Shown here: positions 4,020 to 62,670 of the stretch, one piece after another | Position numbering within the stretch: the stretch's first letter is position 1 | How the letters are laid out: each line of letters opens with the position of its first letter | From: a bacterium | GTDB taxonomy: Bacteria; Armatimonadota; Zipacnadia; Zipacnadales; Zipacnadaceae | DNA length: 64,000 bases | Reading direction: 5' to 3' | Assembly (NCBI GenBank): GCA_030615605.1 | Contig: JAUWYY010000006.1 | Coordinates: 11,847-75,846, forward strand | Translations under genes and position numbers: made by a program | The notes under the pieces: generated by a model | What the model was told of the DNA's origin: nothing | What the model saw: only the letters and a program-made list of their open reading frames with translations | Databases searched by the model: none

Positions 4020-4050
4020 GACGGGTGGGACGCCTGTCGTAGCGAAGCAA

Positions 4051-5151: not shown

Positions 5152-5154
5152 ACT

Positions 5155-6155: not shown

Positions 6156-6478
6156 TGCTCCCGCCGATTGGCCTGCTGCATTATCTGATATTGTCGTTGT
6201 GCCTGTTTTCCTTCGGGTTGCTGGCGGTTATCACCCGCCGACATGCCATCGGTATTCTCCTGGGCATTGAACTTATGCTTAATTCAGCGAACATTAACCT
6301 GGTGGCCTGCAATCATTTCCTGAATCCCGGTGGTGCTCTGCTGGACGGGCAGGTTTTCGTGCTAATGGTTATCGCACTGGCGGCGTGTGAGGCCGCCGTC
6401 GGATTGGCTATTATCCTGCGCTTCTATCGGCAGGCTGAGGCAGCCGACGTCGCCGACGCCCAGCTCCTGAAGTGGTAG
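6152..6478 (+). CDS. nuoK: NADH-quinone oxidoreductase subunit K
   Basis: 108 aa, 3 TM, with conserved Glu residues in TM helices (IGIELMLNSANINL..; ..AACEAAVGLAI..). Confidence 0.85.
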   Translation: MMLPPIGLLHYLILSLCLFSFGLLAVITRRHAIGILLGIELMLNSANINLVACNHFLNPGGALLDGQVFVLMVIALAACEAAVGLAIILRFYRQAEAADVADAQLLKW

Positions 6479-6501
6479 CCGAGACCGAAAGATAGACGAC
6501 T

Positions 6502-8568: not shown

Positions 8569-8693
8569 CGAGTTGCCAGCGGGCTGCGACGGGAGAGTAC
8601 CTGTTTAGGGATACAAATGCACAGGCTCCAGCAATTGACCTTATGTCACAACGAAGATAACTTTTCGCACTTGTCAAAGGATGGATACTGCTG

Positions 8694-10250
8694 ATGCCTA
8701 TACTCAGTCTTCTTATCTTTATACCGCTCATCGGAGCAGCGGTCATCCTGTTTTTGAATACTGAGCGCCATCGCAAGGCGATCTGCTGGACAGCCACGGT
8801 CGCTGCTGCGGTAGCGTTTGTGCTGTCACTGGGCGTCTGGGTCAGATTTGTGCCCGGCCAGCCCGGTATGCAGTTTACCGAGCTGGCTGACTGGATTGAC
8901 GCGCTCAATATCCACTACCACCTGGGCATTGACGGGCTGAGTCTACCGCTGATCCTGCTGACCACGCTGCTATCGCTGCTGTCGGTGATATACTCCTGGC
9001 GCATCACCGATCGTATCAAGGAATATATGATCTTCTTCCTGCTGCTGGAGACGGGGATCCTGGGAGTCTTCTGCGCACTGGACTTCTTCCTGTTTTACAT
9101 ATTCTGGGAAGTGAGCCTGGTGCCGATGTTCTTCCTCATCGGCATCTGGGGCGGCCCCCGGCGGGCATATGCCGCCATCAAGTTCTTTATTTACACGTTG
9201 ATCGGCAGCCTGGCGATTCTGCTGGGAATCCTTGCCCTGTACTTTGCCTCCACGCCGCATACCTTTGATATGATTGAGTTGGCGCGGCAGCATCCGTTCG
9301 CGGGAGGGGGGATAGCGGCTGCCCTGGTCTTCTGGGGCTTCTTTCTGGGCTTTGCCATCAAGGTGCCGTTGTTTCCCTTCCATACGTGGTTGCCGGACGC
9401 TCACGTTGAAGCGCCCACCGCCGGCAGCGTCATCCTGGCCGGGGTTCTGCTGAAAATGGGCTGCTATGGCTTCATCCGGGTAAATCTGCCTATCCTGCCG
9501 GAGGCTTCCCGGCACTTTGCCCTCTGGATAGCGGTGCTGGCCCTCATCAGCATCATCTACGGCGCGCTGTGCGCCATGGCCCAAAAAGACCTCAAACGCA
9601 TGATCGCCTACTCCAGCGTCAACCATATGGGCTACGTAATGCTGGGTATAGCGGCGGCAGTGGCGTTTGTAGCGCCAGAGGCCGTCGGCCAGGCCGTGCA
9701 GCATAGCCGTATTGTGGCTCTGAACGGCGCGGTCCTGCAGATGGTGGCCCACGGGATTATTACGGGGGCGCTGTTCTTCCTGGTGGGGGTAATCTATGAG
9801 CGGACCCATCTGCGGGATATTGATGCCTTCGGTGGCCTGGCCAAGCAGATGCCAGTCTATGCCGGGATAATGATGCTGGCTTGCTTTGCCTCGCTGGGAC
9901 TGCCGGGATTGGCAGGATTTGCTGCTGAGTTTCTGGTTTTCCTCGGCTCGTACGGTATCTATAAGCTGATTACCGGGCTGGCGTTGCTCGGTATTGCCAT
10001 AACTGCGGCATATTTCTTGATGATGATCCAGGGGGTTTTCTTGGGCGAGTTGCGCGAGCGCTGGCAGAATCTGCGCGATCTGGATGCCGGTGAGCTGGTG
10101 GCTACCATCCCGCTGGCGGTGCTGATGCTGGCGATCGGGCTGTATCCAGACCTCATTTTGGCAGTGGTTGATCCGGCCAGCACCGCCCTGGTGACCAATT
10201 TGGAGCAGTTCTATCGGTTGAGTGATGTTATTGCTTCACTGGGGGGATAA
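8694..10250 (+). CDS. nuoM: NADH-quinone oxidoreductase subunit M (antiporter-like)
   Basis: 518 aa; NuoM-like (..FYIFWEVSLVPMFFLIGIWGG.., ..HTWLPDAHVEAPTAGSVILAGVLLKMG..). Confidence 0.9.
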   Translation: MPILSLLIFIPLIGAAVILFLNTERHRKAICWTATVAAAVAFVLSLGVWVRFVPGQPGMQFTELADWIDALNIHYHLGIDGLSLPLILLTTLLSLLSVIYSWRITDRIKEYMIFFLLLETGILGVFCALDFFLFYIFWEVSLVPMFFLIGIWGGPRRAYAAIKFFIYTLIGSLAILLGILALYFASTPHTFDMIELARQHPFAGGGIAAALVFWGFFLGFAIKVPLFPFHTWLPDAHVEAPTAGSVILAGVLLKMGCYGFIRVNLPILPEASRHFALWIAVLALISIIYGALCAMAQKDLKRMIAYSSVNHMGYVMLGIAAAVAFVAPEAVGQAVQHSRIVALNGAVLQMVAHGIITGALFFLVGVIYERTHLRDIDAFGGLAKQMPVYAGIMMLACFASLGLPGLAGFAAEFLVFLGSYGIYKLITGLALLGIAITAAYFLMMIQGVFLGELRERWQNLRDLDAGELVATIPLAVLMLAIGLYPDLILAVVDPASTALVTNLEQFYRLSDVIASLGG

Positions 10251-10332
10251 GCGAAAACGATAGAGGCTTGTTCATCTATTCTCTGACAGGCGAGCTGCCT
10301 GTCCTACTGGGAACTGATGTTAGCTGATTGAT

Positions 10333-11850
10333 ATGCCTTACAATGACCTGAGCATATTTGGTCCCGAATTGAGTCTGTGCGGGCTGGCGCTAGTTGTGCT
10401 GGTCGCCGACCTGATTGTGCCACGACGGTGGCGGCTGGTGCCGGCGGGGTTGGCGGCGGTGGGTCTGGCAGTACCCGTGTATCTGGTAGCAAGCCGCTGG
10501 ATGGCGCCACAGACTTTCGAGTTTATGGGCGCCTACGTCATTGACAGCTTCGCCGATAGCCTGAAGCTGGTGCTGCTGGCGGCGGCCTTCCTGGTGATCC
10601 TGCTCTCAGTTGACTACCTGCGCCGGCTGGAGCGCGGGTTTGGCGAATATTTCGCGCTGGTGCTGTTTTCGCTGACGGGAATGATGCTGCTCACCGGCGC
10701 GTTTGACCTGATCATTATTTATCTGGCCTTCGAGATGATTAGCCTGTCCTGCTATGTGCTGACCGGCTACATGAGGCAGGATCGCAAGTCCAATGAAGCG
10801 GCGCTGAAGTATTTTCTGTATGGGGCAGCAGCTTCGGGGGTGATGCTGTACGGCATCTCGCTCATCTACGGGTTGGGTGGCTCAACTCGCCTCAGCGAGA
10901 TTGCCGCCCGCTTTATGGCCTCGGGGCCGACGGCGGCCGTCGCGGTACAGCCGGCCTTCCTGCAGAGCACGCTGGTGCAGGCGGGGATACCGGAGATCTA
11001 TGTGCTGCGACTGGCTGAGTTGATGATGCCGCTGGCGGTGGTTATGGTCATGGTGGGACTGGGCTTCAAGATCGCCATGGTCCCGTTCCACGCCTGGGCG
11101 CCGGATGCCTACGAGGGCGCTCCCACGCCGATAACTGCGTTCTTGTCAGTCGCGCCGAAGGCGGCGGGCTTCGCGTTGCTTGTGCGTCTGGTGCTGTTGT
11201 GGCAGCCACTGCTAATGGCGCACTGGCCGGCGCTGCTGGCGGCGCTGGCCACTATTACGATGTTCGGCGGCAATCTGTGGGCCATTCGTCAGACCAATAT
11301 CAAGCGGATGCTGGCCTATTCGTCAATCGCCCACGCCGGCTACCTGCTCATCGGTGTGGTGGTAGCGGCCAGCGATGCAATTGGTCAGCACGGGATCATC
11401 GTCTATTTCGCGGCTTATCTGTTTATGAATATCGGAGCATTTGCGGTGGTATTGTTGGTGGCGCGCAACCGGGGCAGCGAGGAAATTGCCGACTTCGCAG
11501 GAATGTACCGGACAGCGCCAGTATTCGCTGCGGCGATGGTCATCTTCCTGCTATCGCTGACGGGCATTCCGCCAACTGCGGGCTTTGTGGGCAAGCTGTA
11601 TATTTTCGGCGCAGCTATAAGCACCGGCAAGTGGGCGTGGCTGGCGGTAGTTGGTATCATTAACAGCGCAATCTCGCTATACTACTATATGAACATCGTC
11701 CGGGTGATGTACTTCGGGGAGCCGGGAGACGAAGCAATGACCATTCAGCCGGTGGGCATCACGATAGTAGCTGCCATCTGCCTGGTGGGCACATTCGCGA
11801 TCGGGCTGTTCCCGCAGGCGATAATTGAGCTTATTCAGCAGTATATCTAG
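10333..11850 (+). CDS. nuoN: NADH-quinone oxidoreductase subunit N (antiporter-like)
   Basis: 505 aa; NuoN-like (..FHAWAPDAYEGAPTPITAF.., ..KRMLAYSSIAHAGYLLIG..); last gene of the operon. Confidence 0.9.
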   Translation: MPYNDLSIFGPELSLCGLALVVLVADLIVPRRWRLVPAGLAAVGLAVPVYLVASRWMAPQTFEFMGAYVIDSFADSLKLVLLAAAFLVILLSVDYLRRLERGFGEYFALVLFSLTGMMLLTGAFDLIIIYLAFEMISLSCYVLTGYMRQDRKSNEAALKYFLYGAAASGVMLYGISLIYGLGGSTRLSEIAARFMASGPTAAVAVQPAFLQSTLVQAGIPEIYVLRLAELMMPLAVVMVMVGLGFKIAMVPFHAWAPDAYEGAPTPITAFLSVAPKAAGFALLVRLVLLWQPLLMAHWPALLAALATITMFGGNLWAIRQTNIKRMLAYSSIAHAGYLLIGVVVAASDAIGQHGIIVYFAAYLFMNIGAFAVVLLVARNRGSEEIADFAGMYRTAPVFAAAMVIFLLSLTGIPPTAGFVGKLYIFGAAISTGKWAWLAVVGIINSAISLYYYMNIVRVMYFGEPGDEAMTIQPVGITIVAAICLVGTFAIGLFPQAIIELIQQYI

Positions 11851-33972: not shown

Positions 33973-36900
33973 ATGCTAATACGGCACCGCTCTTTTGCTA
34001 TCCTCGTCACAGTTCTGATTCTCGCTGCGAGTTTCACTATCGCTGGTACTCCGTCGGCCCATGCTGCCTCGATTAGCTTTGGGTACGGTGGTGATGGCGT
34101 CTGGCCGCAGACGGCCACGGCCAACTCCCAGCGTTGGTTCCGGGTTCACCTTCACTGGAATGCCACGCCCAACGATCAGGGCTTCCCCGCTGAGATAATT
34201 GACGGTTTGTATCTCTACGGCCCCTCCTACAGTTGGCGCCCAGCCGCACCCAGCGGTGTGTCGTTTGCGAGCGAATTGTACTCGGGCAGGGGCATATTTG
34301 ACGCAGGGACGCGATACGCGGTTCCGGGCGAGATTCGGTTAACCGTCGTAGCCTCACCTACGAAAGTGTATTACGTCCCTGCCCCGGGTACCTCGTACTC
34401 TCCCGGGGAGATGGCCGGCTGGCTGCTGACAATTACCAGCGGGCTGGGCATCGGTAATACGTATAATATCGTGGGCAATGACGCTGATGGCGGTGGCACC
34501 TATCTTACTCTGTCCGGGGGTACCCCTCTGGATCCCGAGGTATGCGCGGACCTGGAGGTTACAAGCAACCCCACCACTACCAGAGTCTACTACGATCCGG
34601 TTGTCATAGCCAGCTATTATCCCGATGACACACTGGGAGGGTTAATATTAAGGTTTACCGAGGGCGAAGCGGCCGGCCAAGAATTTGATATCGTTGGTAA
34701 CGGCTCCAATCCCTTCGGATACTACATAGACGTAAGCGAGGATACGGAATTTCCCGCCGAGCTGATGCAGGAGGGCGACGTTGATAGTATTGATTCCACG
34801 ACTCAGTTCTCTTACAGCGGCGTCGATTTTGGTGAAGCGGCGCTGATTGGCTATACGCTCGTCGTTACCAGTGGGACAGCTCTGGGCGAGGAGCGGATGA
34901 TCTCCTATAATACGGACACCTACATTCAGACCACCACAACTCTGCCTACTGGGTTCGCTGCTGCCGACACCTTCGCCATTAAGGACATAATGAACGTCTG
35001 TGATACCGCCGAGGTGGAGAACTTGCTGGCTGGCAACGACCAGCGCGTCCATTTCGGCGTGGTCCGGAACGTTAAAGAAGCTTCCACCGGCAACAATCCC
35101 AAGGTCGTTTTCACCGTCGGCCCGTTCTCCAACTACCACGATGACTACCTGGTGGGCTGGATACCGACCACGCTCCCTGTCCCGGCACTTACCAATTTTA
35201 TGTTCGTTCTGAATTACAGCACGCGGAAAACCGAGGGCGGAGTCACATTCTATGAGGCTGAGGAACCCATAGAGTTCGAGGGCACGCACGTTACCGTGCC
35301 GGTGGCGCGCCGCTTCCCCATTCAGCCCGTAGAGGAACTTTCGGAGTGTGGCGAGCTGCAGGCGTGGTATTCCGGTGTGGGGACCGGAGTTGACCCCTTG
35401 GTGACTGCCCGGTCGGCAGCGGGCGGCCCGACCGACCCGGATAACGGCTCCGGCAGCGATGAGTACGCCTTCCGCATCAGGTATTTCAGCGGGCTCATTG
35501 GTCCTGGGGGTCAGTTCTGGCCGGAACTGCGCAGTCATTGGTGGCGGTATACTACGCCCTTCCAGGAATTCGGCGACGAGGGCGTTCGCGGTGGCTGCCG
35601 TTACGCCCGCTTCGACCGGTTTGGCGACGGCGTAATGACGAGTTGGGGAAACAATACTGCGGCGTGGCAGCATAATCAGAAGCGTGAGTTTCCCGATTGG
35701 CTGCCCCTTGGTTACGAGGATCGCCAGGTGTTCAGTCCTCACGACGACCCGTATTTCGATATGACGGGCGACTATATCGACTTGGCGGGCCACGACCCGA
35801 CGGCTCTTCTGGTAGTCGATGGCGACTACGACCGACCCCATTTTATGGTTCCGGAGAGCGGGAGCACCCTGCGGGACGGCATTGTCTACAAGTACACCGT
35901 ACGCCCTACCAACTACCTGCAATTGTTCCACAACATCTTCACGCTGCAGTTTGATACACCCCACTACGATGCCTGGGACACTGCCTATATGAACCTGACC
36001 GGCGAGCCGACGAGTAACGCCTATGTCAGTATGCGCCCGGGCGGGCATACCTACGAGTTCCTGACCTGCCGCGACTGGGAGCCACCGGTCTGGGGGGTGG
36101 GTGGGGCCGGTGAATATGACGTGGGTAACTTCGCCCACGCCGGCCCGTGCTCGCTGGCCCTGCGGGGGCAGCCGGGGTACAACATAGAGGCAGTCCACGT
36201 GGTCAACGATTATTGGGACGCTGCTTGGTACCCCTCTATTAATCTTGCCGTCAATCTGGAGACGGTTGAGATGTGGTATGAAGATGCTGAGCCGGGCGGA
36301 TACGGCTACCCCTACGACAGCCAGGATCCCACTCAGTACCCGAAGATTGATCCAGTGCTGACAGCCCATCCTTACTTCGAGGACGGTCTGCTCAGTGCGG
36401 CCGAGCGGGGCTTCATCTGGCCCAATTACTACTTGGAAGACCTCGGGCCCCACTCACCCGGGTCATTGCCTAACCCCTTCAACTATAACCCGACGACTGA
36501 GCCGTGGGGACCGTTGGCAGGCCCCACATACCCGACGCCTGTGTATGGCGGGTATAATCCGGGCAATCCCCTTGACCCGACGGCGAAGGCCATCTCACCG
36601 TTCCGCTTCACCAACGAGGACACGATCTGGCCCAACTACGTCAATATCCACGAGGAGCTCCATCCGACCATGCCCTTCCGGGGCGGCAAGTGGATGACCG
36701 ATACGACCTTCGTCTTCCGGATCAACTACTGGCAGTCCGACAACCTGGAGCCGACCTCCATGCAGCTATGGCTCCGTAAAACCGACGAAGACGGCACCCC
36801 TATAGGCGACTGGACCAGGAAGGCGATGACTAAGGTCTACCCCGCCGACATCACCTATACCGATGGCGTTCTGTATTACTATGAGTGGGACGCCGCCGAC

Positions 36901-39900
36901 CTGCCGAGCGGAGGCGGGATCGGCGACTACCAGTATTCCTTCCGGGCCAGCGACGGCACGCACATCGCGATCTATCCGAACCGGCCCGCCAATGACCCGG
37001 GTTACATCGGCGTGCCGCCGGGCGACAACGATTATTACTGGTTCCGGGTCAACACGCCACCCGAATTGAGTGATGAGTCGATCACGGAGTTGGTAGCAAC
37101 GGCGGCCGAGCCGCCGCAAGGCGACTTCCGCTGGGATGTTACCTACACCGACGACGACGGTGAGGTGCGCAATGCCGGCCGCCTGGGCGACCGACCATTC
37201 AAGAGCATCCTGTGGATAGACCTGTTCGGCGATGTTGAAGGCCAGGCCGAAGTGGTCTCGGTGGCCGTCAATGTCATCACTTACGAAGTGGACGGCGGCG
37301 GCGGTGACCCGTATGCGGCTGGCTCGCTCGTGGGTCTGCAGGTGTTAATGGAGAGCGGCACGGCAGAGGGAGAGCACTTTGATATCACTGCCAACACCGT
37401 CTCCGGGAGTCAGGGGACGATAACCTGTACCGGTCTGAGCGGCGTCGCGGCGACCGACGAGTTCGATATAGTGGACTGGTTCCTCGCCAAAATGGATGAA
37501 ACGGATCCGGCGGACACCAACCACCGTGACGGGAAGGAGTACGATATTGACACCGTCCGGCTGGGCTTCCAGTTGACTCCCGGTGCCCACCTGTACTACT
37601 ACGAGTTCTGGGATAACTGGGTCTACTGGATAGACTGGCAGCAGTATTTCATGACCTCGGATCCCGATCCGATTGACCAGAAAGTCGAAGGCGAGATAGT
37701 CCGGCTGCCCGCGACGGGATACCTTGAGACCCCCTACACGCCACCGGCACCACCGGCCTATTCCATATCGGGCACGGTGTACGACACCGACGGGACAACG
37801 CCGCTGGAGGGTGCTACGCTCAAGTGTTATGATGGCGCGTTCGTAGACCCTGATGACCTGGTTGACGAGCAGACTACTGGCGTCAGCGGCACCTATGAAT
37901 TCGAGGACCTCCCTGACGACGATTATCGCGTCATACCGAGCTACGACTCAGAGTTCTTCGATCCTACTGATGAAGATGTGACGGTGTCGGGGGCTGACGA
38001 AACCGGTGTGGACTTCCAACTGGTAGCGACCTCCTCAATATCGGGCACTGTTTACGATATCGGAGGCAGCGACCCGCTGGAGGGGGCCACTCTCAAGTGT
38101 TATCGTACTCCCTACGCGGATCCCGCGGATCTGGTTGACGAGCAGGATAGCGTCGCGGATGGCACCTACGAATTCGAAGGTCTAGTCGACGACGACTACC
38201 GCGTGATCCCGAGCTACGGTGGCTATGACTTCGACCCCACTCAGACAGATGTGACGGTGTCGGGGGCTGACGAGACCGGCGTGGACTTCGAGTTGCAACC
38301 CGGTGACTGGAGCATCTCCGGAACCATTCTCGATACCGGCAGTGACCCCGTCGAGGGTGTCACCGTTAGCACAACGGGTGCCTCGGATGAAACTGATTCA
38401 TCCGGCGACTACTTGATAGGCAATCTGCCCAATGACGACTATACCCTGACGGCGACCGCGTCGGTCGGGCAGTACTACACCTTCGCGCCGGATGGCTGGA
38501 GCCAGCCGGTTACCATCTCTGGTGCTGACCGGACGAATATCGACTTCGAAGCCACCGAACAGACCTTCAGCGTGAGCGGGACGGTCCTTGACTACGAGGA
38601 CAATCCCGTAAGTGGCATTGTGGTCACCGATGGGACGAACTCAGACACGACTATTGGCGATGGGACCTACACGATCACGGGCGTATCAGCGGGCCTGGTT
38701 ACGATCACGGCCCAGCCGGGCGGGGGCTTTGTATTCGTGCCCCAGAATCAAGATGTCACGGTGCCGGCGCCGGGACCCAGTGATGTAACGGATGTTGACT
38801 TCACTGGTTATGCGGGAGTCGGGCACAGCTACTCGGCCGGTCTGCACCTTGTCGGGGTGCCGCTCTATCCCATTGAGGGCTATGCCGAGGATGTCTTCCT
38901 GACCTCCGACATCTGGTGGTGGCATCCCAGCGGTACGGTCTACATAGGCACTGGCCACCCCAATGCCGCCTCGCTGCTGCAGGTGCAGCCCGCTATGGGC
39001 TTCTTCGTCAACTACGGCAGCGCCACCGACATCAACGTAGCGGGTACTACGGTACCCACTGGCGTGCCGTTCGTGAAGAATCTGGGGCCAGCCTGGAATA
39101 TGATCGCCAATCCGTTTGACGGCTATGAATTACCCATAGCCAACATACAGCCTGACACCGGCCAGCAGATTCTGCCGTTCGCTTACATCTACGATTCATC
39201 GAGCGGCTCTTACCTGGTGATCACTGATCAGCCGGGCATTGGCGTAGCCCGCAACTACATAGACGAATGGGAGGGCGCATGGCTGTATGCCTGTAGCAGC
39301 ACTGGCTTCACTGTCGAGATGACTGCCGGGCCGGCAGTTGCCGCAGCCGCTGCTGAAGATGCGGTAAGCCCGCAGGCGCTTGAAACCGGCCAATCGGGCT
39401 GGGTAGTGCCGGTGCTGGCCCATGTAGGCAATCGCAGTGACCTGATGGGCGCGATTGGCATCAGCAGCATTGAGCCCTACAGTCTGCCCAATCCGCCGGC
39501 AGCGCGGAACAGCGTAGATCTCTACTTTATGGGCGCCGATGGCAGCCAGTTGGCGCAGTCAGTTCTTACGCCGACCGGCGATACAGCTAGCTGGGAGTTT
39601 GTAATTGCTACCGACATCCCGGATAGTGAGGTAGAGGTAGCTCTGCCCGACCTCAGCCAGCTTCCCAATGATCTGATTGTGACTCTGACCGATCTTGACG
39701 CTGATCGCTCGGTATACGCCCGCACGATGCCGAGTTACAGCTTCCGCAGCGGCGAGGATGGCGGTGTCCGTCACTTCCGCATTGAGGTCGCGCCGCAGCA
39801 GGCTGGTGGATTGGCGATTACCACTGCGACAGCGCAGCCCGGTGGCGCCGGTGCGGTGATAACCTATGGAGTCAGCCAGGCCTGTAATGTCACCGTGGAA

Positions 39901-40101
39901 GTTATGAATATCTCCGGGCAGGTCATCAAGACATTGGCCATTGATGAAATAGCCGGCGCGGGTACTCATACGTTGTCGTGGAACCTGCGCAGCAACAGTG
40001 GTACAGTGGTGCCCCGCGGGATGTACCTGGTCAGGATAGAGGCTGCGGCTGAGAACGGGCAGCGCACCAGCAGGCTGTGTCAACTGAACGTAAATAGATG
40101 A
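33973..40101 (+). CDS. giant secreted surface protein (2042 aa) with carboxypeptidase-regulatory-like repeats and FlgD-Ig/T9SS-like C-terminal domain
   Basis: ATG with GGAGGG RBS. Cleavable signal peptide (..ASFTIAGTPSAHAAS). At least 4 CarboxypepD_reg-like beta-sandwich repeats (S(I)SGTVYD..G..LEGATLK..) in aa ~1265-1560. C-terminal ~75 aa match the FlgD-Ig-like / por-secretion-type sorting domain pattern (VTVEVMNISGQVIKTL...GTHTLSWNL...G..VPRGMYLVRIEA). Confidence 0.8.
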   Translation: MLIRHRSFAILVTVLILAASFTIAGTPSAHAASISFGYGGDGVWPQTATANSQRWFRVHLHWNATPNDQGFPAEIIDGLYLYGPSYSWRPAAPSGVSFASELYSGRGIFDAGTRYAVPGEIRLTVVASPTKVYYVPAPGTSYSPGEMAGWLLTITSGLGIGNTYNIVGNDADGGGTYLTLSGGTPLDPEVCADLEVTSNPTTTRVYYDPVVIASYYPDDTLGGLILRFTEGEAAGQEFDIVGNGSNPFGYYIDVSEDTEFPAELMQEGDVDSIDSTTQFSYSGVDFGEAALIGYTLVVTSGTALGEERMISYNTDTYIQTTTTLPTGFAAADTFAIKDIMNVCDTAEVENLLAGNDQRVHFGVVRNVKEASTGNNPKVVFTVGPFSNYHDDYLVGWIPTTLPVPALTNFMFVLNYSTRKTEGGVTFYEAEEPIEFEGTHVTVPVARRFPIQPVEELSECGELQAWYSGVGTGVDPLVTARSAAGGPTDPDNGSGSDEYAFRIRYFSGLIGPGGQFWPELRSHWWRYTTPFQEFGDEGVRGGCRYARFDRFGDGVMTSWGNNTAAWQHNQKREFPDWLPLGYEDRQVFSPHDDPYFDMTGDYIDLAGHDPTALLVVDGDYDRPHFMVPESGSTLRDGIVYKYTVRPTNYLQLFHNIFTLQFDTPHYDAWDTAYMNLTGEPTSNAYVSMRPGGHTYEFLTCRDWEPPVWGVGGAGEYDVGNFAHAGPCSLALRGQPGYNIEAVHVVNDYWDAAWYPSINLAVNLETVEMWYEDAEPGGYGYPYDSQDPTQYPKIDPVLTAHPYFEDGLLSAAERGFIWPNYYLEDLGPHSPGSLPNPFNYNPTTEPWGPLAGPTYPTPVYGGYNPGNPLDPTAKAISPFRFTNEDTIWPNYVNIHEELHPTMPFRGGKWMTDTTFVFRINYWQSDNLEPTSMQLWLRKTDEDGTPIGDWTRKAMTKVYPADITYTDGVLYYYEWDAADLPSGGGIGDYQYSFRASDGTHIAIYPNRPANDPGYIGVPPGDNDYYWFRVNTPPELSDESITELVATAAEPPQGDFRWDVTYTDDDGEVRNAGRLGDRPFKSILWIDLFGDVEGQAEVVSVAVNVITYEVDGGGGDPYAAGSLVGLQVLMESGTAEGEHFDITANTVSGSQGTITCTGLSGVAATDEFDIVDWFLAKMDETDPADTNHRDGKEYDIDTVRLGFQLTPGAHLYYYEFWDNWVYWIDWQQYFMTSDPDPIDQKVEGEIVRLPATGYLETPYTPPAPPAYSISGTVYDTDGTTPLEGATLKCYDGAFVDPDDLVDEQTTGVSGTYEFEDLPDDDYRVIPSYDSEFFDPTDEDVTVSGADETGVDFQLVATSSISGTVYDIGGSDPLEGATLKCYRTPYADPADLVDEQDSVADGTYEFEGLVDDDYRVIPSYGGYDFDPTQTDVTVSGADETGVDFELQPGDWSISGTILDTGSDPVEGVTVSTTGASDETDSSGDYLIGNLPNDDYTLTATASVGQYYTFAPDGWSQPVTISGADRTNIDFEATEQTFSVSGTVLDYEDNPVSGIVVTDGTNSDTTIGDGTYTITGVSAGLVTITAQPGGGFVFVPQNQDVTVPAPGPSDVTDVDFTGYAGVGHSYSAGLHLVGVPLYPIEGYAEDVFLTSDIWWWHPSGTVYIGTGHPNAASLLQVQPAMGFFVNYGSATDINVAGTTVPTGVPFVKNLGPAWNMIANPFDGYELPIANIQPDTGQQILPFAYIYDSSSGSYLVITDQPGIGVARNYIDEWEGAWLYACSSTGFTVEMTAGPAVAAAAAEDAVSPQALETGQSGWVVPVLAHVGNRSDLMGAIGISSIEPYSLPNPPAARNSVDLYFMGADGSQLAQSVLTPTGDTASWEFVIATDIPDSEVEVALPDLSQLPNDLIVTLTDLDADRSVYARTMPSYSFRSGEDGGVRHFRIEVAPQQAGGLAITTATAQPGGAGAVITYGVSQACNVTVEVMNISGQVIKTLAIDEIAGAGTHTLSWNLRSNSGTVVPRGMYLVRIEAAAENGQRTSRLCQLNVNR
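37759..38304 (+). repeat. 2 x ~273-bp imperfect tandem DNA repeat inside the giant gene (about 85% identity)
   Basis: Unit 1 at 37759-38031 and unit 2 at 38032-38304 encode two adjacent ~91-aa carboxypeptidase-regulatory-like domains with near-identical blocks (ATLKCY, YRVIPSY, DVTVSGADETGVDF). Confidence 0.8.
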
Positions 40102-48408: not shown

Positions 48409-50250
48409 ATGTCTGATTATGTCACGGTGACCTTCGAGCCGGCAGGAGCAAAGGCGAAAGTTCCTGCCGGCACTAATCTATATGAAGCTGCCCAACAGGC
48501 GGGAGTTAAGATAAGCGGCTCCTGTGGCGGCCAGGGGACTTGTGGGAAGTGCCAGGTTCACGTTACTGGAGGTATGGTCAGTGAGCCTGCCCTGCAAGAG
48601 GTGGAGCTGTTGGGCGCCCCGCTTATCGAGCGGGGCACCCGCCTGGCCTGCCAGACCCAGTTGCTCGGTAACGCCGTCGTTCGCTTGCCCAGCGCGCAGG
48701 GGGCTGTTGTCCGCAAGGCTCTGCCGGCTGAATCGGTGCGTTCGGTGCCACTTGCCCCCAACGTCCGGCGTTACGACCTTAAGATCCCTGCCGCCAGGCT
48801 CGATGATCAACGCAGCGATTTTCAGAGGTTGGCCGAGGCAATAACTGAGCAGCCCGCCAACCTGACGGCCACGGTGCAATGTCTGCGTAGTTTAGCCACT
48901 GCGTTGCGAGCTGAGGATCAAGATGTCGCGATAACTGCGGTCGGCAGCCAGGTTGTGGACGTAAGACCGGCATTGGAGCGAGCGCCCTGCCTGGGCGTTG
49001 CTGTGGACATTGGTACCTCCACGCTGGCAGTATATCTGGTGGATCTAGAGACAGGGGAGCATCTCGTCACGGCCGCCGGGCAGAATCCTCAGACACAGTT
49101 CGGCGCCGATGTTATCTCACGCATCCAGTATGCCAATAGCCACCCCGACGGCCTGACTGTGCTACGGGATGATGTGCTGACCGCTATCAATCAGTTGATT
49201 CGCCAGGCCGTGGAAGAGGCGGGCGCTGCCCTGGCTGATGTCTATGAGGCAACGATAGTTGGCAACACCTGTATGCATCATATCTTTCTGGGCCTGGAGC
49301 CGCGATACTTAGCGGAAAGCCCCTACGTGCCTGTGACCACTGAAGCGGTCAGCACGTCTGCAGATCGGCTTGGTCTGCAGATGAACCCGCGAGGCAACGT
49401 TTTTTGCCTACCGTGCATAGCCGGGTTTGTGGGAGCTGACACTGTTGGTGTGATCGTTGCCAGTGAGCTGACGCGGCGGGACCGTCCCACCCTAGCGGTA
49501 GATATTGGGACTAATGGTGAAATAGCACTATGGTCTGGTGAGCGGCTGCTGACTACCTCGTGCGCAGCGGGTCCGGCCTTTGAAGGCGCTCAAATTCACC
49601 ACGGGATGAGAGCTGCTCCGGGCGCAATAGATGAAGTGTTTGTGAACGGCGATGACCTGGCAGTACATACAATTGATGACCAGCCCGCCCGGGGCATTTG
49701 CGGGTCGGGGCTTTTTGATGCTACGGCGGTGCTATTGGAACTGGGACTGATAGATACAAAGGGACATATGGTGGATGGCGGAAGCTGTGGGACTTTGTCC
49801 GACACCGTGGCGGGGCGTGTAGCGGGCGAAGCAAACGAACGGCGTGTAGTCCTGGCCGATGCCGAGCAAAGCGCGAACAATCCAATAGTGCTGACCCAGA
49901 GGGACGTCCGCGAGATACAACTGGCCAAGAGCGCGATTCGGGCATCAACAGAGATGTTGCTTGAGATAGTCGGCTTGAAGCCGGACGACCTGGACGAGGT
50001 GCTCATTGCTGGGGCCTTCGGCAACTTCATCAATCCTGCCAGCGCTCTACGGATGGGGTTGCTTCCTGAGGTACCAGAGGGTAGAATAGTGGGGATTGGC
50101 AATGCGGCCGGGGCTGGAGCAATCCTGACGCTGGTCTCACGGCATGAGCGTGACTATGCCAGGCAGGTGGCCGAGACGGCCGAGCACATTGAGTTGTTTC
50201 GCAGTTCCGACTTTCAGGACCGATTTGCCGAGTATATGATATTTCCATAA
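48409..50250 (+). CDS. RACo-like protein: N-terminal [2Fe-2S] ferredoxin domain + C-terminal ASKHA ATPase domain (COG3894/DUF4445-type reductive activator of corrinoid proteins)
   Basis: N-terminal plant-type ferredoxin (CGGQGTCGKC ... LAC). The remainder resembles acetate/sugar-kinase-fold corrinoid activation proteins (VAVDIGTSTLAVYLVDL; VDIGTNGEIAL). 613 aa, typical of RACo. Confidence 0.65.
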   Translation: MSDYVTVTFEPAGAKAKVPAGTNLYEAAQQAGVKISGSCGGQGTCGKCQVHVTGGMVSEPALQEVELLGAPLIERGTRLACQTQLLGNAVVRLPSAQGAVVRKALPAESVRSVPLAPNVRRYDLKIPAARLDDQRSDFQRLAEAITEQPANLTATVQCLRSLATALRAEDQDVAITAVGSQVVDVRPALERAPCLGVAVDIGTSTLAVYLVDLETGEHLVTAAGQNPQTQFGADVISRIQYANSHPDGLTVLRDDVLTAINQLIRQAVEEAGAALADVYEATIVGNTCMHHIFLGLEPRYLAESPYVPVTTEAVSTSADRLGLQMNPRGNVFCLPCIAGFVGADTVGVIVASELTRRDRPTLAVDIGTNGEIALWSGERLLTTSCAAGPAFEGAQIHHGMRAAPGAIDEVFVNGDDLAVHTIDDQPARGICGSGLFDATAVLLELGLIDTKGHMVDGGSCGTLSDTVAGRVAGEANERRVVLADAEQSANNPIVLTQRDVREIQLAKSAIRASTEMLLEIVGLKPDDLDEVLIAGAFGNFINPASALRMGLLPEVPEGRIVGIGNAAGAGAILTLVSRHERDYARQVAETAEHIELFRSSDFQDRFAEYMIFP

Positions 50251-50346
50251 GACGAGAAGGTATTACCCAGGCAGGCAACGAACCTGCTGGCTGTTGAGCA
50301 GCAGGCAATTTCCAAGACACGTCTACTCGTAATAGGAGGATGACCG

Positions 50347-50985
50347 ATGGCAGATCTACAAGTCCTAGCAGAAGCAGTAATCAATGGGGATCGTGACGAA
50401 GTTGCGCGCATTGTTCAGGAGGCGGTTGCCGAAGGAGTCGGTCCCGGCTCCATCGTCAACGAGGGTCTTGTTGTGGGGATGGATGAGGTGGGCCGCAGGT
50501 TCAAAGCCAATGAGTTCTATGTCCCAGAGGTGTTGATTGCCGCCCGAGCGATGCACGCGGGTATGGACATTGTCAATCCGTTGCTGGCTGAAAGCGGCAT
50601 CGAGCCGCGCGGTCGGGTGCTGATTGGCACGGTCCAGGGCGACCTGCACGACATTGGCAAGAACCTCGTTGCGATGATGCTGGAAGGTGGAGGCTACGAG
50701 GTTATTGATATGGAGGTGGACGTCCCGGCTGACCAGTTCGTGGCGGCAGTTAACGAACATTCGCCGAATGTCCTAGCCATGTCGGCGCTGTTGACCACAA
50801 CGATGCCGGCGATGAAGGATACAATTGAGGCGTTGGATGCTGCCGGCGTCCGCCAGCAGATCAAGATTATGATCGGCGGGGCGCCGGTTACTCAGGATTA
50901 TGCCGATGAGATCGGCGCTGATGGGTATGCCCCGGATGCGGCCTCGGCTGTTGATTTGGCCGCGGATCTTATGAGTGCGGGCTAG
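50347..50985 (+). CDS. cobalamin-binding corrinoid protein (B12-binding cap + Rossmann domain)
   Basis: DLHDIGKNLV (DxHxxG) ... MSALLTT (SxL) ... IMIGGAP (GG) B12-binding signature preceded by a helical B12-binding_2 cap; AGGAGGA RBS. Confidence 0.75.
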   Translation: MADLQVLAEAVINGDRDEVARIVQEAVAEGVGPGSIVNEGLVVGMDEVGRRFKANEFYVPEVLIAARAMHAGMDIVNPLLAESGIEPRGRVLIGTVQGDLHDIGKNLVAMMLEGGGYEVIDMEVDVPADQFVAAVNEHSPNVLAMSALLTTTMPAMKDTIEALDAAGVRQQIKIMIGGAPVTQDYADEIGADGYAPDAASAVDLAADLMSAG

Positions 50986-51078: not shown

Positions 51079-51104
51079 CCGCAGCTACGGTTATGTAGCT
51101 GCGG
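51079..51104 (+). terminator. hairpin CCGCAGCTAC-ggttat-GTAGCTGCGG downstream of the corrinoid gene
   Basis: Perfect 10-bp stem with 6-nt loop about 95 nt after the stop; no U-tract. Confidence 0.3.
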
Positions 51105-58455: not shown

Positions 58456-61400
58456 CTACTCCTCGATCTGGAGGATGTCGTCGCTGTCCAACTCCTGGTC
58501 GCTACCCTCTAGCCAGGTGGCGAACAATACCTGGGCCTCCCGTTTGGTCAGTGCCCGATCGGCCAGGGCATCGCGCAGTTGGCCAAAGTCGCGGGGGATG
58601 AGTGTTTTGCCGGCCAGCACGCGGTTGATGTGGCCGATGACGTCATCAGTAAGCAGCGACAGGATCTGCCGCGGGCTGGGCTGGTCGGAGAGGCCGACGA
58701 TGGCCTGCAGTTTGCTGGCTACCTCGGTTCTGGGTGGCAGCGCCTGTGCGTAGATGTTGAGCTTCTCGCGCAGGCTGGGGCCACTTAGTGCGGAGAAGTA
58801 CTGATCCAGGCCCTCCTGAGTAGCTTCTTGAAGCTGCTGGACCGGTGGCAGTTGCAGTTCCTGCCCGAGCCGCAGGCGGCACTGTGGGCATATCGGCTGC
58901 TGGCCCAAGTCCTCACCCAGGTTGGGATTATGGCAGCAGCGGGCTATCAAATTCTCTATGATCTCGCCAATCTGGGCGGCATCATACTCGACTTGTATAT
59001 CCAGGCCCTGGAGCTGAGACAGAGCGCGGAAGTCCGGACTGGCGCGGAATCGGCGGTAGTGCTCAAAGGCGGGATTGCGGTGGGCCTGGCTGTGCCAGTT
59101 AAGATAATGACGCTTGTATCGGGTCAGAAAGATCTGCACAGCGCGGTGAAAGGCGAGCTGGTTGCGGATTATCTCCTCGCCGCTTTCCACAGCTTCCAGC
59201 AGCTCGTCTCGCCGGTGGGGAAGTTGCCCGGTATCGGGCAACTGCAGCAGCGAGCTGGTGACATACTGCTTAACCTTGATCAACTCCGGACCGAGCCGCT
59301 GGAGGAATTCCTCCAAACCGTCAACACGCCGCAGCAGCTTGCGCAACAGCATACTCTCATCATCATTGTCCAGGTGCGGCTCCAGCCCGGCGACGAATTC
59401 GCTGATGCCCTCGGAGCTGGCCTTGTTGGGATCGATCATTTCGTAGAATTCGGTAGCTGCATCCAGGTCGCGGGCGGCTTTCTCCCACTGCGGGGCTGAC
59501 TGATCCAGTGCCGCAATCAGTTGGTCGAGCTGCTGGCTGATTTGGCTCAAGCGACTCAGTTGCTGCTGTCGGCCAGCGACCAGCTCTTGCCATATCTGGT
59601 GTTGAGTGCGGAGACTGGGGCCAGAGATACCTCTGTCAAGCACCGCCCGGACCACCTTGCTTAGCGCTTGCCAACTGCTCAGCGGCAGCAGAGCGGGTCG
59701 GGCCAGGTAGCGCACGTGGGCGGCAAAGGGTAGTTCAATTTGCTCAAAGCGCAGCGCCCGCTGGTCGGTATCGAGCGCGACCACATATCCCAGTCGCACC
59801 AGCACCGCTGCGGTTAGCTCAAACAGGTGGGGCGGCAGCCCCAGTGGCGACTTGAGCAAGTGCTGGGCCAGGTCGGCACAGGACAGTGGGCGGCCCTGCT
59901 CGTGCTGGGGGGTTTGATCGCGCTGGCGGATGCGCCTCATAATCTCGTCAGCCACTGGACTGTCTGAGACATCAATCCGTAGGTTATCTCCTTCAGCCTC
60001 CACCAATTCAAGCGGGGCAAGGAAGGCTTCGGCCAGCTCGCGGATACTGGAGCCGGGGGGCGCAGTGACTTCTCCGGGCGCGATCAGTCCAGCGATCACG
60101 CGGCTAATCTGGTCTTCACTGGTCAGAACGCGCCGTGGCGCAACGGATGCAAAATCCGGAAACAAGGCGGCGAAACTGGGTGCGCTAACCTGTGCCAGGC
60201 TTGCGAGCCAATCGCCGGCAGTAGCAGGTAGCTGGTCGGCGGGTATAGTATCGCTGCTGAGCGTTGATATCTCTCCATTATAGTAGGCTTCGACGACGAT
60301 CTGGCGCAGTTGGCTCTCCAGCGTCATATACTCCTCGAGCAGGCGTCCGCGCCACGCTCCCTGCAGTTCGACCTCGGGGGGCGGCTGTTGGAGGAGCTGG
60401 TGGCAGGCCGCACATTCTTTGGCAACATCCACCTCCTCAGCAGTCAACGGCCGCGGCAGCCACGCCACCAGTCCACTATGCCAGCGGGCTTTGTCGGCGA
60501 CCTCCTGCAAGTGCGTCCATGCCTGGCGTTGCTCGGCGACTCGCACTAGCTGCCCAATGAAGAGCTGGCAGTCTTCGGGCGTAGCAGGATCGGCCAATTC
60601 CGCCGCGCACGCCCGTAGTTGGGACAGCGTGAGGTTAGAGAGGTTGGCGATCTGGGCGGCCACGCAGCGGAGAGTATTTTCCCAGATGACCTCATAGGGC
60701 TGTTTGCGTGTCAGCTCGGACAGCGGTAAAGCAGGACTGTCAGAGGCGGCTACTATGCGCTGCCACAGGCGCGAGTCGTCACTTGCGAAGGTGCCTTTTA
60801 CAGCGTTCAGCCGCTGGCGCACCAGATTAGTGAGGTTAGTGTGAGCGTCAATCAGGTAGACGGATGATTCGGGTTCCGGTCCGCGGCGAACGTCCACATA
60901 ATTGCTGGAGAGGTGAAGAGCTTCGAGCAGTTGCCGGGCCCGCTCCGCTGGCAAGCGCGCCGCGCCATTCTCGTCCACGCCCAAACATTCGGCAATGGTA
61001 GCTGCCGCCGAGGGTACGTTGCCCAGGCGCAACACTACCATTGCGCGGATTACCTGCAAGGCCACTTGAGGATCTTCGGGCACCAGTTGGTCAATATTGC
61101 GCTGGTAGAAGTCGAGCACTTCGTTGAAATACGGGCTTACCTGCGGATGTGAACCGGTGGCGGTGTGGATGTAATCCACGAGTTCGGCTGGGCCGATGAG
61201 CTCAAAGTCGGCCCGATCCTCGAAAGCCCGCAATCCACCGGCCCGGGCCGGGGCAGCCGCGAATTGCAGCAGGCCGTCGGCGGCTCTCCCGTAGCGTTCG
61301 ATGATAACCTGGATGCATTGATGAGCCAGGGGATGGAGCGGATACGTCTGTTCGAGCTGCTCAGCGCCAAAGCTGGCCTTGCCAAAGGCTGTTTGATACG

Positions 61401-62670
61401 CGTCGGCTATGCGCTTGATAGCGCTTGACAGTTGCTTGGTATCTGTTTGCTGTAACATCCGCTGTCGAGCGACGCGGGTCATCTGCTGGGTGGACAGTTC
61501 AAGACTGTTTTGATACAAGCTACGCAGGCTGCTCACCAGGTACGGCTCAAGCCCGGTGATGTGCTCCCAGCCGTCTTCGATGGCCAGGATAATGTGCAGT
61601 GGCTCTATATTGCTGCGCTGGGATAGAAACTCCAGGAAGCTGCAGTCACTGTGAGCGGCCTTGCTATCCACGCTGGCAAAGAATTCAGACAGATCGTCAA
61701 TGAGCCATATCGCGCCGCCGAGCCGTTGTTCACTGAGGATTTGCAGCACGCGGGAGAGCCGTTCGCTGCGAGATTGACGGAAATCCAGCGGATAGCCGAC
61801 CTGCTGAGCAACTTGCTGAGCGGCAGCTATTGCCTCGGCTGGTTCGCGGCGGCGCAACTGCTGCCAAGTGGTATAGCCACCGACGTGCTGCCGGGCCCGT
61901 TCGTTGAGCTGTTCGCCGTATCTGGGCACGACGTGTTGCTCAATCAGTGCCATTGCATATGACTGCTGGGAGAGTGGTACGGTGATGTCGTACTTGGGGC
62001 GGGCGAGCTCCCGGGCAGTGCAATCGAAGATAATGTCCTCCAGATGCTCCTGATCTGCGCGGTGTTCAGATAGAGGCACCGGGACGATTAGTCTCGGCGG
62101 GGTTTGCTGCAGTGCCTGGTGAATTGCCGGCAGGTGGGGATGACTGTCCCGGAAGGTTTGCCGGGCGGCGGGGTATTCCAGTAGCAGGGCAATCGCTGCC
62201 AGCAGGTGTGACTTGCCACTGCGGGCCGGACCCTGCACGATTATACTTGAACCCTCATCGGCACCGGCGACAATTGACTCAACAATTGTCTGTAGAGCTT
62301 GCCCCGCTTCGTCGTCCTCGGTTGCGACGTAACTGTCCAGCAAGTCGCCAAGCTGGCTTGCCGCTGGCAGGGAAAGCTCCCCTGGCTGCTGGGCCAGCTC
62401 CTCGCGTAAGGAGTCCAGGTTGCCCAGTGATACCGGCGTGGTCTGCTCAGGACAGTGGATTAGCTCTCCAATGGTTGGTAACAAAGATGTCTCACCCGAC
62501 AGGCAGGCTGGTCGGATCTGGTCAAATGCCTCTAAGAAAGTTGTCCGCACCCGCTGAGGATAAGACCATATTCGTGGCGCGATGGGATATCCCTTCTTGC
62601 TTGCTCGAATTTGTGCATAATTTTCTTCCGATTGGTCGGATAAGAGAGTCGGCCCCAACAGTAGTCGCAA
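58456..62670 (-). CDS. large (1404 aa) P-loop NTPase of unknown function (BrxC/COG1483-like or STAND-like candidate)
   Basis: Uninterrupted 4.2-kb ORF with probable TTG start. Walker A VQGPARSGKSHLL (about aa 145-157; nt ~62200-62240) and putative Walker B AIWLIDDLSEF (about aa 320). About 1000 aa of mostly alpha-helical sequence follow, and a Cys/His cluster CCH-x16-CPQC lies near the C-terminus. Confidence 0.65.
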   Translation of the reverse strand: MRLLLGPTLLSDQSEENYAQIRASKKGYPIAPRIWSYPQRVRTTFLEAFDQIRPACLSGETSLLPTIGELIHCPEQTTPVSLGNLDSLREELAQQPGELSLPAASQLGDLLDSYVATEDDEAGQALQTIVESIVAGADEGSSIIVQGPARSGKSHLLAAIALLLEYPAARQTFRDSHPHLPAIHQALQQTPPRLIVPVPLSEHRADQEHLEDIIFDCTARELARPKYDITVPLSQQSYAMALIEQHVVPRYGEQLNERARQHVGGYTTWQQLRRREPAEAIAAAQQVAQQVGYPLDFRQSRSERLSRVLQILSEQRLGGAIWLIDDLSEFFASVDSKAAHSDCSFLEFLSQRSNIEPLHIILAIEDGWEHITGLEPYLVSSLRSLYQNSLELSTQQMTRVARQRMLQQTDTKQLSSAIKRIADAYQTAFGKASFGAEQLEQTYPLHPLAHQCIQVIIERYGRAADGLLQFAAAPARAGGLRAFEDRADFELIGPAELVDYIHTATGSHPQVSPYFNEVLDFYQRNIDQLVPEDPQVALQVIRAMVVLRLGNVPSAAATIAECLGVDENGAARLPAERARQLLEALHLSSNYVDVRRGPEPESSVYLIDAHTNLTNLVRQRLNAVKGTFASDDSRLWQRIVAASDSPALPLSELTRKQPYEVIWENTLRCVAAQIANLSNLTLSQLRACAAELADPATPEDCQLFIGQLVRVAEQRQAWTHLQEVADKARWHSGLVAWLPRPLTAEEVDVAKECAACHQLLQQPPPEVELQGAWRGRLLEEYMTLESQLRQIVVEAYYNGEISTLSSDTIPADQLPATAGDWLASLAQVSAPSFAALFPDFASVAPRRVLTSEDQISRVIAGLIAPGEVTAPPGSSIRELAEAFLAPLELVEAEGDNLRIDVSDSPVADEIMRRIRQRDQTPQHEQGRPLSCADLAQHLLKSPLGLPPHLFELTAAVLVRLGYVVALDTDQRALRFEQIELPFAAHVRYLARPALLPLSSWQALSKVVRAVLDRGISGPSLRTQHQIWQELVAGRQQQLSRLSQISQQLDQLIAALDQSAPQWEKAARDLDAATEFYEMIDPNKASSEGISEFVAGLEPHLDNDDESMLLRKLLRRVDGLEEFLQRLGPELIKVKQYVTSSLLQLPDTGQLPHRRDELLEAVESGEEIIRNQLAFHRAVQIFLTRYKRHYLNWHSQAHRNPAFEHYRRFRASPDFRALSQLQGLDIQVEYDAAQIGEIIENLIARCCHNPNLGEDLGQQPICPQCRLRLGQELQLPPVQQLQEATQEGLDQYFSALSGPSLREKLNIYAQALPPRTEVASKLQAIVGLSDQPSPRQILSLLTDDVIGHINRVLAGKTLIPRDFGQLRDALADRALTKREAQVLFATWLEGSDQELDSDDILQIEE

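Follow-up and report, generated by a model that had tools for sequence, protein, structure and literature searches.

A 64-kb stretch of DNA from an Armatimonadota bacterium of the class Candidatus Zipacnadia (contig JAUWYY010000006.1, positions 11,847 to 75,846; referred to here as the window) encodes a protein of the RACo type, a family of ATP-dependent reductive activators of corrinoid proteins, and directly downstream of it a stand-alone corrinoid (cobalamin-binding) protein. Our analysis indicated that this pair probably serves as the common core of a three-component system for cobalamin-dependent methyl transfer. Its partners are likely to be methyltransferases of the MttB superfamily that are dispersed elsewhere in the genome. 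This reading was suggested by the domains of the two proteins, by the fixed position of their genes in a housekeeping block of Armatimonadota, and by the occurrence in related contigs of MttB genes that have no corrinoid protein nearby.

The activator and the corrinoid carrier

Pfam analysis of the activator detected an N-terminal plant-type [2Fe-2S] ferredoxin domain (Fer2; amino acids [aa] 9 to 84; E = 1.2e-11, 44.8 bits), which was followed by the RACo linker (PF17650; aa 110 to 189; E = 4.2e-14, 52.6 bits), the RACo middle domain (PF17651; aa 195 to 356; E = 1e-59, 201.2 bits) and the C-terminal ASKHA ATPase domain (PF14574; aa 361 to 613; E = 4.7e-76, 255.7 bits). The scores of the last three domains were above the cutoffs of their models. 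Alignment with the RACo crystal structure 3ZYY covered the full length of the protein (residues 4 to 610) with a score of 350 bits. The cysteine cluster CGGQGTCGKC and the cysteine of an LAC motif at aa 81 matched the pattern of plant-type [2Fe-2S] ferredoxins, and the nucleotide-binding motifs of the ASKHA fold were present as DIGTST (aa 200 to 205), DIGTNGE (aa 365 to 371) and GICGSG (aa 429 to 434). No Fer4 domain was detected in the activator by the Pfam scan; RamA has a C-terminal domain with two [4Fe-4S] clusters instead of an N-terminal [2Fe-2S] domain. The best NCBIfam match was to AcsV (NF040756) at 416.5 bits, about half of the 800-bit equivalog cutoff. The RamA model (TIGR04270) scored 156.8 bits against a cutoff of 500 and was matched at profile positions 2 to 410 of 534 only. 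These results marked the 613-aa protein as a true member of the RACo family (COG3894). A preliminary description of the locus had identified it as such, with the same gene boundaries, and the four Pfam domains and the 3ZYY alignment left no indication of a different kinase-fold family. ATP-dependent reduction of Co(II) to Co(I) by the activator is predicted from the conserved nucleotide-binding motifs.

The corrinoid protein was found to consist of a helical cap (PF02607, B12-binding_2; aa 6 to 76; E = 4.9e-23, 81.5 bits) and a Rossmann B12-binding domain (PF02310; aa 89 to 202; E = 3.1e-30, 104.9 bits). The DxHxxG...SxL...GG signature noted in the preliminary description was located as DLHDIG, SALLTT and GGAP, and these motifs aligned with the same motifs in the structure 1Y80 and in MttC. 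The B12-binding fold and its motifs are intact. Among the NCBIfam models, the protein scored nearer to the methylamine and quaternary-amine types (MtgC_2, 231.6 bits; TIGR02370, 209.8 bits; MtbC, 192 bits) than to MetH (134 bits), with MtaC at 149 bits. A similar ranking was obtained with the Protein Data Bank, in which 1Y80 (226 bits; residues 5 to 209) was followed by MttC (169 bits), MtmC and MtaC and then by the B12 modules of MetH (∼107 bits). The score for TIGR02370, which covers carriers of the MtmC/MtbC/MttC/MtgC type, fell narrowly short of the curated cutoff of 215.3 bits. The glycine betaine MtgC models, NF047996 and NF047995, were the best matches, the former being aligned end to end, and gave 231.6 and 201.6 bits against cutoffs of 370 and 310. 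As the equivalog cutoffs for AcsV, RamA and MtgC were not reached, the two genes were not assigned these specific names.

Absence of methyltransferase genes from the window

Methyltransferase genes were sought in the window by a Pfam scan of the large, non-overlapping open reading frames (ORFs) and by a six-frame scan of every ORF of at least 70 aa. The references for the latter were MttB, pterin-binding, uroporphyrinogen decarboxylase (URO-D), MtrH, MetH-activation-like, CobW and formate-tetrahydrofolate ligase (FTHFS) proteins. No methyltransferase family was detected among the large ORFs by the Pfam scan, and the matches in the six-frame scan were the activator and corrinoid genes alone. 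The Pfam scan of the large ORFs also detected no acs gene. No Rfam family reached its gathering threshold in the window, and hence there was no cobalamin riboswitch. The lack of an adjacent methyltransferase that was pointed out in the preliminary description therefore extended to the whole 64 kb, and the methyltransferases of a three-component system are not encoded with the carrier within this distance. The rest of the window had a housekeeping character, with an 11-subunit nuo operon, ispB-like, tldD, ybeY, phoH, mreB, smc, ftsY and rodA genes, and further genes for gmk, coaBC, metK, priA, def, fmt, an M48 peptidase and lptA/C-like proteins.

In order to place this arrangement, the neighborhoods of RACo relatives were compared in 80 loci from public genomes by clustering of the neighboring genes and Pfam analysis of cluster representatives. 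A corrinoid protein was present in 47 of the 80 loci, a pterin-binding protein in 33, a URO-D/MtaA-like protein in 25, CobW in 19, MtrH in 7 and MttB in 3. Outside the Armatimonadota, 45 of 75 loci contained a gene for MttB, MtrH, or a pterin-binding or URO-D protein, and a corrinoid match without a recognized methyltransferase was observed at a sole locus, L066. These results bore out the earlier statement that such pairs normally accompany methyltransferases, and indicated that the arrangement in the window departs from the norm. A different orphan context was observed for about 20 RACo relatives from metagenome-assembled genomes (MAGs) of Dehalococcoidales and other Chloroflexota (L020-L030, L035, L038, L046, L048, L054, L057 and L061), for which neither a corrinoid protein nor a methyltransferase was encoded within 10 kb; many of these genes lay among acyl-CoA dehydrogenase and other conserved unknown genes.

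Conservation of the pair in Armatimonadota

The nearest genomes were MAGs of the Armatimonadota class Candidatus Zipacnadia. A fixed gene block, gmk-coaBC-metK-priA-def-fmt-TPR-RACo-CoP-EamA-YfhO-like (where TPR is a tetratricopeptide repeat gene and CoP is the corrinoid gene), recurred in the Zipacnadia MAGs and was also detected in far more distant Armatimonadota-type contigs and one WS1-labelled MAG (L081, L082, L084 and L085). The adjacency of the RACo and corrinoid genes was kept in every Armatimonadota-type locus seen, with a spacer of 79 to 100 nucleotides (nt). Across distant lineages, the level of identity was 73 to 77% for the corrinoid protein and 71 to 79% for MetK, as compared to 48 to 67% for PriA, Def, Fmt and RACo. 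The high conservation of the carrier is in keeping with a need to dock with an activator and with several methyltransferases. The GC content was uniform (∼0.58) across the region, and an origin as a horizontally transferred island was rejected on the basis of this uniformity and of the vertically conserved synteny. Overall, the module is vertically inherited and strongly constrained, and the fmt-TPR-RACo-CoP position provides an easy marker for finding it in Armatimonadota MAGs. A B12-binding radical S-adenosylmethionine (SAM) gene was observed in one distant Armatimonadota MAG (L081, 13462-14832), in a cluster of membrane-protein and glycosyltransferase genes downstream of the corrinoid pair; a gene of this type was absent from the window.

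The spacing of the genes in the window was tight. The def and fmt genes overlapped by 4 nt, as did the fmt stop codon and the TPR gene, and the gap between the TPR and RACo genes was 30 nt. A consensus scan found no terminator-like site between the RACo and corrinoid genes or immediately downstream of the latter. This spacing and the Shine-Dalgarno sequence upstream of the corrinoid gene suggest constitutive co-transcription, and the RACo-corrinoid pair is probably transcribed together with the housekeeping genes.

Candidate partner methyltransferases

Two relatives (L085 and L086), whose corrinoid protein was 75% identical to that of the window, carried an MttB gene of 484 aa between priA and def. 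Co-directional with its neighbors, this gene formed part of the same block and preceded RACo by about 2 kb. The protein belonged to a divergent non-pyrrolysine subfamily, scoring 208 bits against a cutoff of 525 for the trimethylamine methyltransferase model TIGR02369, and its homologues were mostly labelled Armatimonadota. These Armatimonadota-type orthologues were encoded in a variety of settings. They occurred solo or in tandem among sulfatase, heparinase II/III, GH123/glycoside hydrolase, creatininase and amidohydrolase genes (L087-L090), next to the formate-tetrahydrofolate ligase gene fhs (L091 and L092), or beside genes for a URO-D-family methyltransferase, CobW and a PocR/AraC regulator (L097 and L098). 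No corrinoid protein or activator was encoded within 10 kb of the orthologues at any of these loci. As an MttB enzyme cannot work without a carrier and none was nearby, these enzymes require a carrier that is encoded elsewhere. A metagenome scan with the Armatimonadota MttB sequence detected four loci, one of which was again contig Ga0272441_10004842 (L088); there was no second methyltransferase, corrinoid protein or activator in any of the four. The nature of the MttB neighbors (glycan-active genes in some cases and URO-D, CobW and PocR in others) raises the possibility that these enzymes act on methylated amines from glycan or osmolyte breakdown.

Published gene counts pointed in the same direction. 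In Supplementary Table 8 of Carlton et al. 2023 (PMC10290634), the study in which the classes Zipacnadia and Hebobacteria were defined, K14083 (mttB) is listed at 1 to 11 copies in 43 of the 47 columns examined for MAGs of these classes, including 2 copies in Meg19_1012_Bin_454 (the source of L001) and 6 copies in Meg22_1012_Bin_125 (the source of L002). The same supplementary tables list metF in most MAGs (Table 8), folD and fhs in most MAGs (Table 7) and an acsE-like gene (K15023) in the closest MAGs. The presence of metF, folD and fhs provides a route for oxidation of methyl-tetrahydrofolate (methyl-THF). Neither corrinoids nor methionine, B12, betaine or mttB come up in the main text of PMC10290634.

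The relationship of the carrier to those of other phyla was examined with a neighbor-joining tree (100 bootstraps) of 66 corrinoid proteins from the RACo loci. The Armatimonadota carriers formed a clade with a bootstrap value of 100/100 and were placed, with poor support, next to MttB-adjacent carriers. The closest of the 66 outside the Armatimonadota was that of L023 (53% identity), a locus at which the carrier gene is followed by an MttB gene, a TRAP transporter, a second MttB gene, RACo and a pterin-binding gene.

Taken together, these findings argue that the partners of the pair are probably dispersed MttB-superfamily methyltransferases encoded elsewhere in the genome. The preliminary description had left both the substrate and the partners unassigned. 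The L085 and L086 loci, the MttB loci that lack a corrinoid gene and the KEGG counts now narrow the partners to this superfamily; as to the substrate, the description stands.

Proposed mechanism

In the mechanism that we favor, the 212-aa carrier would hold cobalamin in the base-off/His-on form and cycle between Co(I) and methyl-Co(III). Loading would most likely be performed by a non-pyrrolysine MttB-superfamily enzyme, which would methylate Co(I) from a methylated amine. A pterin-binding enzyme (AcsE/MtgA-like, K15023) or a URO-D-type enzyme would most likely unload the carrier by passing the methyl group to THF, after which MetF, FolD and Fhs would oxidize it. Accidental oxidation of Co(I) would generate inactive Co(II). 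Repair by RACo would involve entry of an electron into the [2Fe-2S] domain, with ATP hydrolysis in the ASKHA domain driving the uphill reduction of Co(II) to Co(I). The genes would have a hub layout, with carrier and activator in a constitutively expressed block and the substrate-specific enzymes scattered and separately regulated. The carrier would thus serve the dispersed MttB enzymes and may be the sole carrier in the genome. The position of the TPR gene was the same in all of the Armatimonadota-type loci examined (42 to 90% identity), and its product, perhaps a docking adaptor, may belong to the module as a third component.

Several observations weigh against this proposal. The insertion of MttB into the block was seen in one lineage (L085 and L086), and the WS1-labelled MAG and other relatives were without it. 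The number of mttB copies listed for the closest MAGs, which are incomplete, ranged from 0 to 6 (PMC10290634). The AcsE-like genes may belong to the corrinoid iron-sulfur protein (CoFeSP), as acsC and acsD are also listed for these MAGs (PMC10290634). A sister relationship of the Armatimonadota carriers with L023 had a bootstrap value of 38/100, and the grouping of the MttB-associated carriers in one clade had a value of 4/100; this placement is weak and was not relied on. Finally, the corrinoid protein was below every NCBIfam equivalog cutoff, including that of MtgC (231 versus 370 bits).

Alternative roles

The same gene counts bear on a different role for the pair, which may provide a split methionine synthase with its cobalamin module and with the means to reactivate it, as its only function or besides demethylation. 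In this scheme, a pterin-binding enzyme would transfer the methyl group of methyl-THF to the carrier, from which a second, homocysteine-binding enzyme would take it to produce methionine, and RACo would stand in for the domain of classical MetH that carries out SAM-dependent reactivation. In Table 8 of PMC10290634, K00548 (metH) has a count of 0 in all 47 of the MAG columns examined and K00549 (metE) in 46 of these, ahcY and metF are listed for most MAGs, and MetK is encoded in the window. The presence of ahcY and MetK without metH or metE implies that homocysteine is made but that no annotated route returns it to methionine. The main text of PMC10290634 does not comment on this gap in the methionine cycle of the Zipacnadia and Hebobacteria MAGs. 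The zero counts may, however, result from incomplete MAGs and the thresholds for KEGG orthologues, and methionine auxotrophy is an alternative explanation. Orthologues of the carrier are named methyl-THF–homocysteine methyltransferase by the Joint Genome Institute pipelines, but similarity to the B12 modules of MetH was much lower than that to methylamine-type carriers, and no gene for a homocysteine-binding (PF02574) or core-MetE protein was present in any locus examined. A precedent exists in the three-part MetH of Phaeobacter, which has a ferredoxin/DUF4445 RamA-like activator (PMC5764234). The carrier was as conserved as MetK and has a fixed place in a block with metK, def and fmt. The gene order gmk-coaBC-priA-def-fmt is an ancient one that is also conserved in Bacillota, and closeness to metK, def and fmt may therefore lack functional meaning. 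On balance, we consider a split synthase, whether as the sole or as an additional role of the pair, possible but doubtful. A broader version, in which carrier and RACo would form a housekeeping methyl hub that replaces MetH, seems unlikely. Methyl groups from methyl-THF or from dispersed MttB demethylases, acting on methylated amines that are possibly glycan associated, would in that case pass to an unrecognized homocysteine methyltransferase, and regeneration of methionine without MetH or MetE would depend on a split, ATP-reactivated system tied to catabolic demethylation.

The resemblance of the activator to AcsV, its best NCBIfam match (416 bits), and to the CoFeSP activator 3ZYY, its best structural match, raised the question of whether RACo serves the Wood-Ljungdahl pathway's CoFeSP (AcsC/AcsD), as in Carboxydothermus, with the small corrinoid protein being an unrelated neighbor or a secondary client. 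Genes for acsC, acsD and acsE are listed for the closest MAGs, Bin_454 and Bin_125, in Table 7 of PMC10290634. However, the AcsV score was about half of the cutoff (416 versus 800 bits) and, as described above, the Pfam scan detected no acs gene among the large ORFs of the 64-kb window. Furthermore, the RACo-corrinoid adjacency was kept in Bin_272, for which neither acsC nor acsD is listed, and in distant lineages, and small corrinoid proteins were frequent neighbors of RACo relatives in general (47 of 80 loci). These features make CoFeSP an improbable principal client. It is more improbable by far that the corrinoid protein is a B12 sensor (CarH-like or light sensing), storage protein or chaperone and that the activator has some other redox role. 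Stand-alone cap-plus-Rossmann B12 proteins do include photoreceptors, and a weak match to CarH (37 bits) was detected, but the protein has no DNA-binding or output domain and matched methyltransferase-cognate carriers far more strongly. Moreover, a dedicated Co(II)-to-Co(I) activator next door makes sense only for Co(I) chemistry.

Other features of the locus and the window

The features of the locus are presented in Table 1. The flanks were as given in the preliminary description, with the TPR gene upstream and a hairpin and envelope genes (encoding EamA/ArnE-like and YfhO-like membrane proteins) downstream; the adjacency of the pair was also as given, and the spacer was corrected from 97 to 96 nt. 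The hairpin, which lies between the corrinoid and EamA-like genes, was unique in the window, and no match was obtained in 100 shuffled sequences. Its stem was unchanged in the Zipacnadia loci L001, L002, L003 and L005, in which the loop and the flanking spacer varied, and it was not found in the more distant Armatimonadota loci. A classic intrinsic terminator was ruled out by the absence of a T-tract; the hairpin might define the 3' end of an mRNA, affect mRNA stability or serve as a palindromic operator.

Table 1. Coordinates of the activator-carrier locus (positions in the window)
Feature	Position	Strand	Details
TPR protein, 136 aa	47968..48378	+	Pfam TPR_2, TPR_14, TPR_16
Predicted RACo-type ATP-dependent reductive activator of corrinoid proteins	48409..50250	+	613 aa; Pfam PF00111, PF17650, PF17651, PF14574
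[2Fe-2S] ferredoxin domain of the activator, predicted electron entry point	48433..48660	+	Pfam Fer2, aa 9-84; aligns with N-terminal domain of 3ZYY
Spacer between RACo and corrinoid genes, 96 nt	50251..50346	+	GGAGG at 50335-50339, 7 nt before ATG
Stand-alone corrinoid (cobalamin-binding) protein, putative methyl carrier	50347..50985	+	212 aa; Pfam PF02607 and PF02310
DxHxxG motif DLHDIG (aa 99-104), predicted histidine lower ligand to cobalt (base-off/His-on)	50641..50658	+	regular expression on translation
SALLTT motif of corrinoid protein (aa 146-151)	50782-50799	+	regular expression on translation
GGAP motif of corrinoid protein (aa 177-180)	50875-50886	+	regular expression on translation
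Perfect 10-bp hairpin CCGCAGCTAC-N6-GTAGCTGCGG, 3' of corrinoid gene	51079..51104	+	sequence, fold

Three further observations were made in the window. The complex I operon (1392-11850) has the order nuoA-B-C-D-H-I-J-K-L-M-N, with no nuoE, nuoF or nuoG between nuoD and nuoH; an 11-subunit complex without the NADH-oxidizing module suggests another electron donor, such as ferredoxin. On the minus strand, a 1404-aa protein (58456-62670) with a match to DUF6079 and a weakly BrxC/PglY-like C-terminal region (37 bits with PADLOC) may be a phage defense ATPase. On the plus strand, a 2042-aa protein (33973-40101) with repeated CarboxypepD_reg, SpaA-like and FlgD_ig domains is probably a giant cell surface protein.

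Significance and comparison with known systems

By sequence, the components all fall into known families, namely, RACo/COG3894, the TIGR02370-type carriers and the MttB superfamily. The points of note are modest and consist of the fixed housekeeping location, the MetK-like conservation of the carrier and the unexplained methionine synthase gap. If the proposed shared carrier and activator do serve dispersed enzymes, then Zipacnadia and related Armatimonadota would demethylate methylated amines via a divergent MttB family sharing one carrier and one activator, and would constitute an added bacterial sink for methylamine-type compounds in sediments that otherwise feed methanogens. Armatimonadota went unmentioned in the 15 top-ranked papers of the searched library on MttB, corrinoid proteins or glycine betaine, and neither B12 nor methionine synthase was discussed in the genome papers on Fervidibacter and Fimbriimonas.

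The closest solved structure to the carrier, 1Y80 of Moorella thermoacetica (226 bits), is annotated as a predicted cobalamin binding protein and has all of the B12 motifs in common with it; this structural genomics entry has no assigned partner, and so confirms the fold and adds no function. The activator has the same four-domain architecture as RACo (3ZYY, 4C1N)/AcsV of Carboxydothermus hydrogenoformans, including the N-terminal [2Fe-2S] domain and the conserved ASKHA motifs (350 bits). The latter acts on CoFeSP, a protein of two subunits in the acetyl-CoA pathway, whereas the adjacent protein in the window is a small, single-chain B12 protein.

MtgB/MtgC/MtgA systems for quaternary amines, with a RamA/RACo activator, occur in Desulfitobacterium hafniense, Methanolobus vulcani and Eubacterium limosum (MtpB/MtcB/MtyB). 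The window resembles these systems in the cap-plus-Rossmann architecture of the carrier, in its His-on motif and in MtgC being the best NCBIfam model, as well as in the link to non-pyrrolysine MttB genes in relatives and the predicted ATP-dependent reductive activator. It differs in that the scores were below the MtgC cutoffs, the MttB subfamily is very divergent, and the carrier is embedded in a housekeeping block rather than in a cluster with methyltransferases.

Dispersed systems of this kind are found in the roseobacters. The mtgC, ramA, mtgB, mtgD and mtgE genes of Ruegeria and Phaeobacter are present at separate loci (PMC12478193, PMC5764234), examples being PGA1_c13350 and the RamA-like PGA1_c15200 of Phaeobacter inhibens and MtgC (SPO2160) and RamA (SPO2041) of Ruegeria pomeroyi (PMC5764234, PMC12478193). 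Cultured Armatimonadetes, such as Chthonomonas and Fimbriimonas, also have non-operonic genomes in which functionally related genes are scattered (PMC4959169). The arrangement in the window is thus less surprising than the preliminary description implied (PMC5764234, PMC12478193, PMC4959169). Genetic analyses of the roseobacters indicated that a stand-alone carrier and a ferredoxin/DUF4445 activator make methionine and that the carrier of Ruegeria also serves MtgB (PMC5764234, PMC12478193). The roseobacter carrier is a hub for both MttB-family demethylation and methionine synthesis. There are differences between the two, in that activator and carrier are unlinked in the roseobacters and adjacent here, no DUF1638 gene was seen here and no homocysteine-binding partner was present in the loci examined, and the Armatimonadota system is predicted from sequence. 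The hosts also belong to different phyla, with the Zipacnadia described as inhabitants of hypoxic and anoxic sediments (PMC10290634). The split MetH/MtgBCDE system of the roseobacters nevertheless shares with the window a stand-alone carrier, an activator with ferredoxin and DUF4445 domains and, probably, methyltransferases at separate loci and a host without classical MetH. In these Armatimonadota, ahcY and metK without metH or metE leave an unaddressed gap, and a split methionine synthase of the kind recently shown in marine roseobacters may close it.

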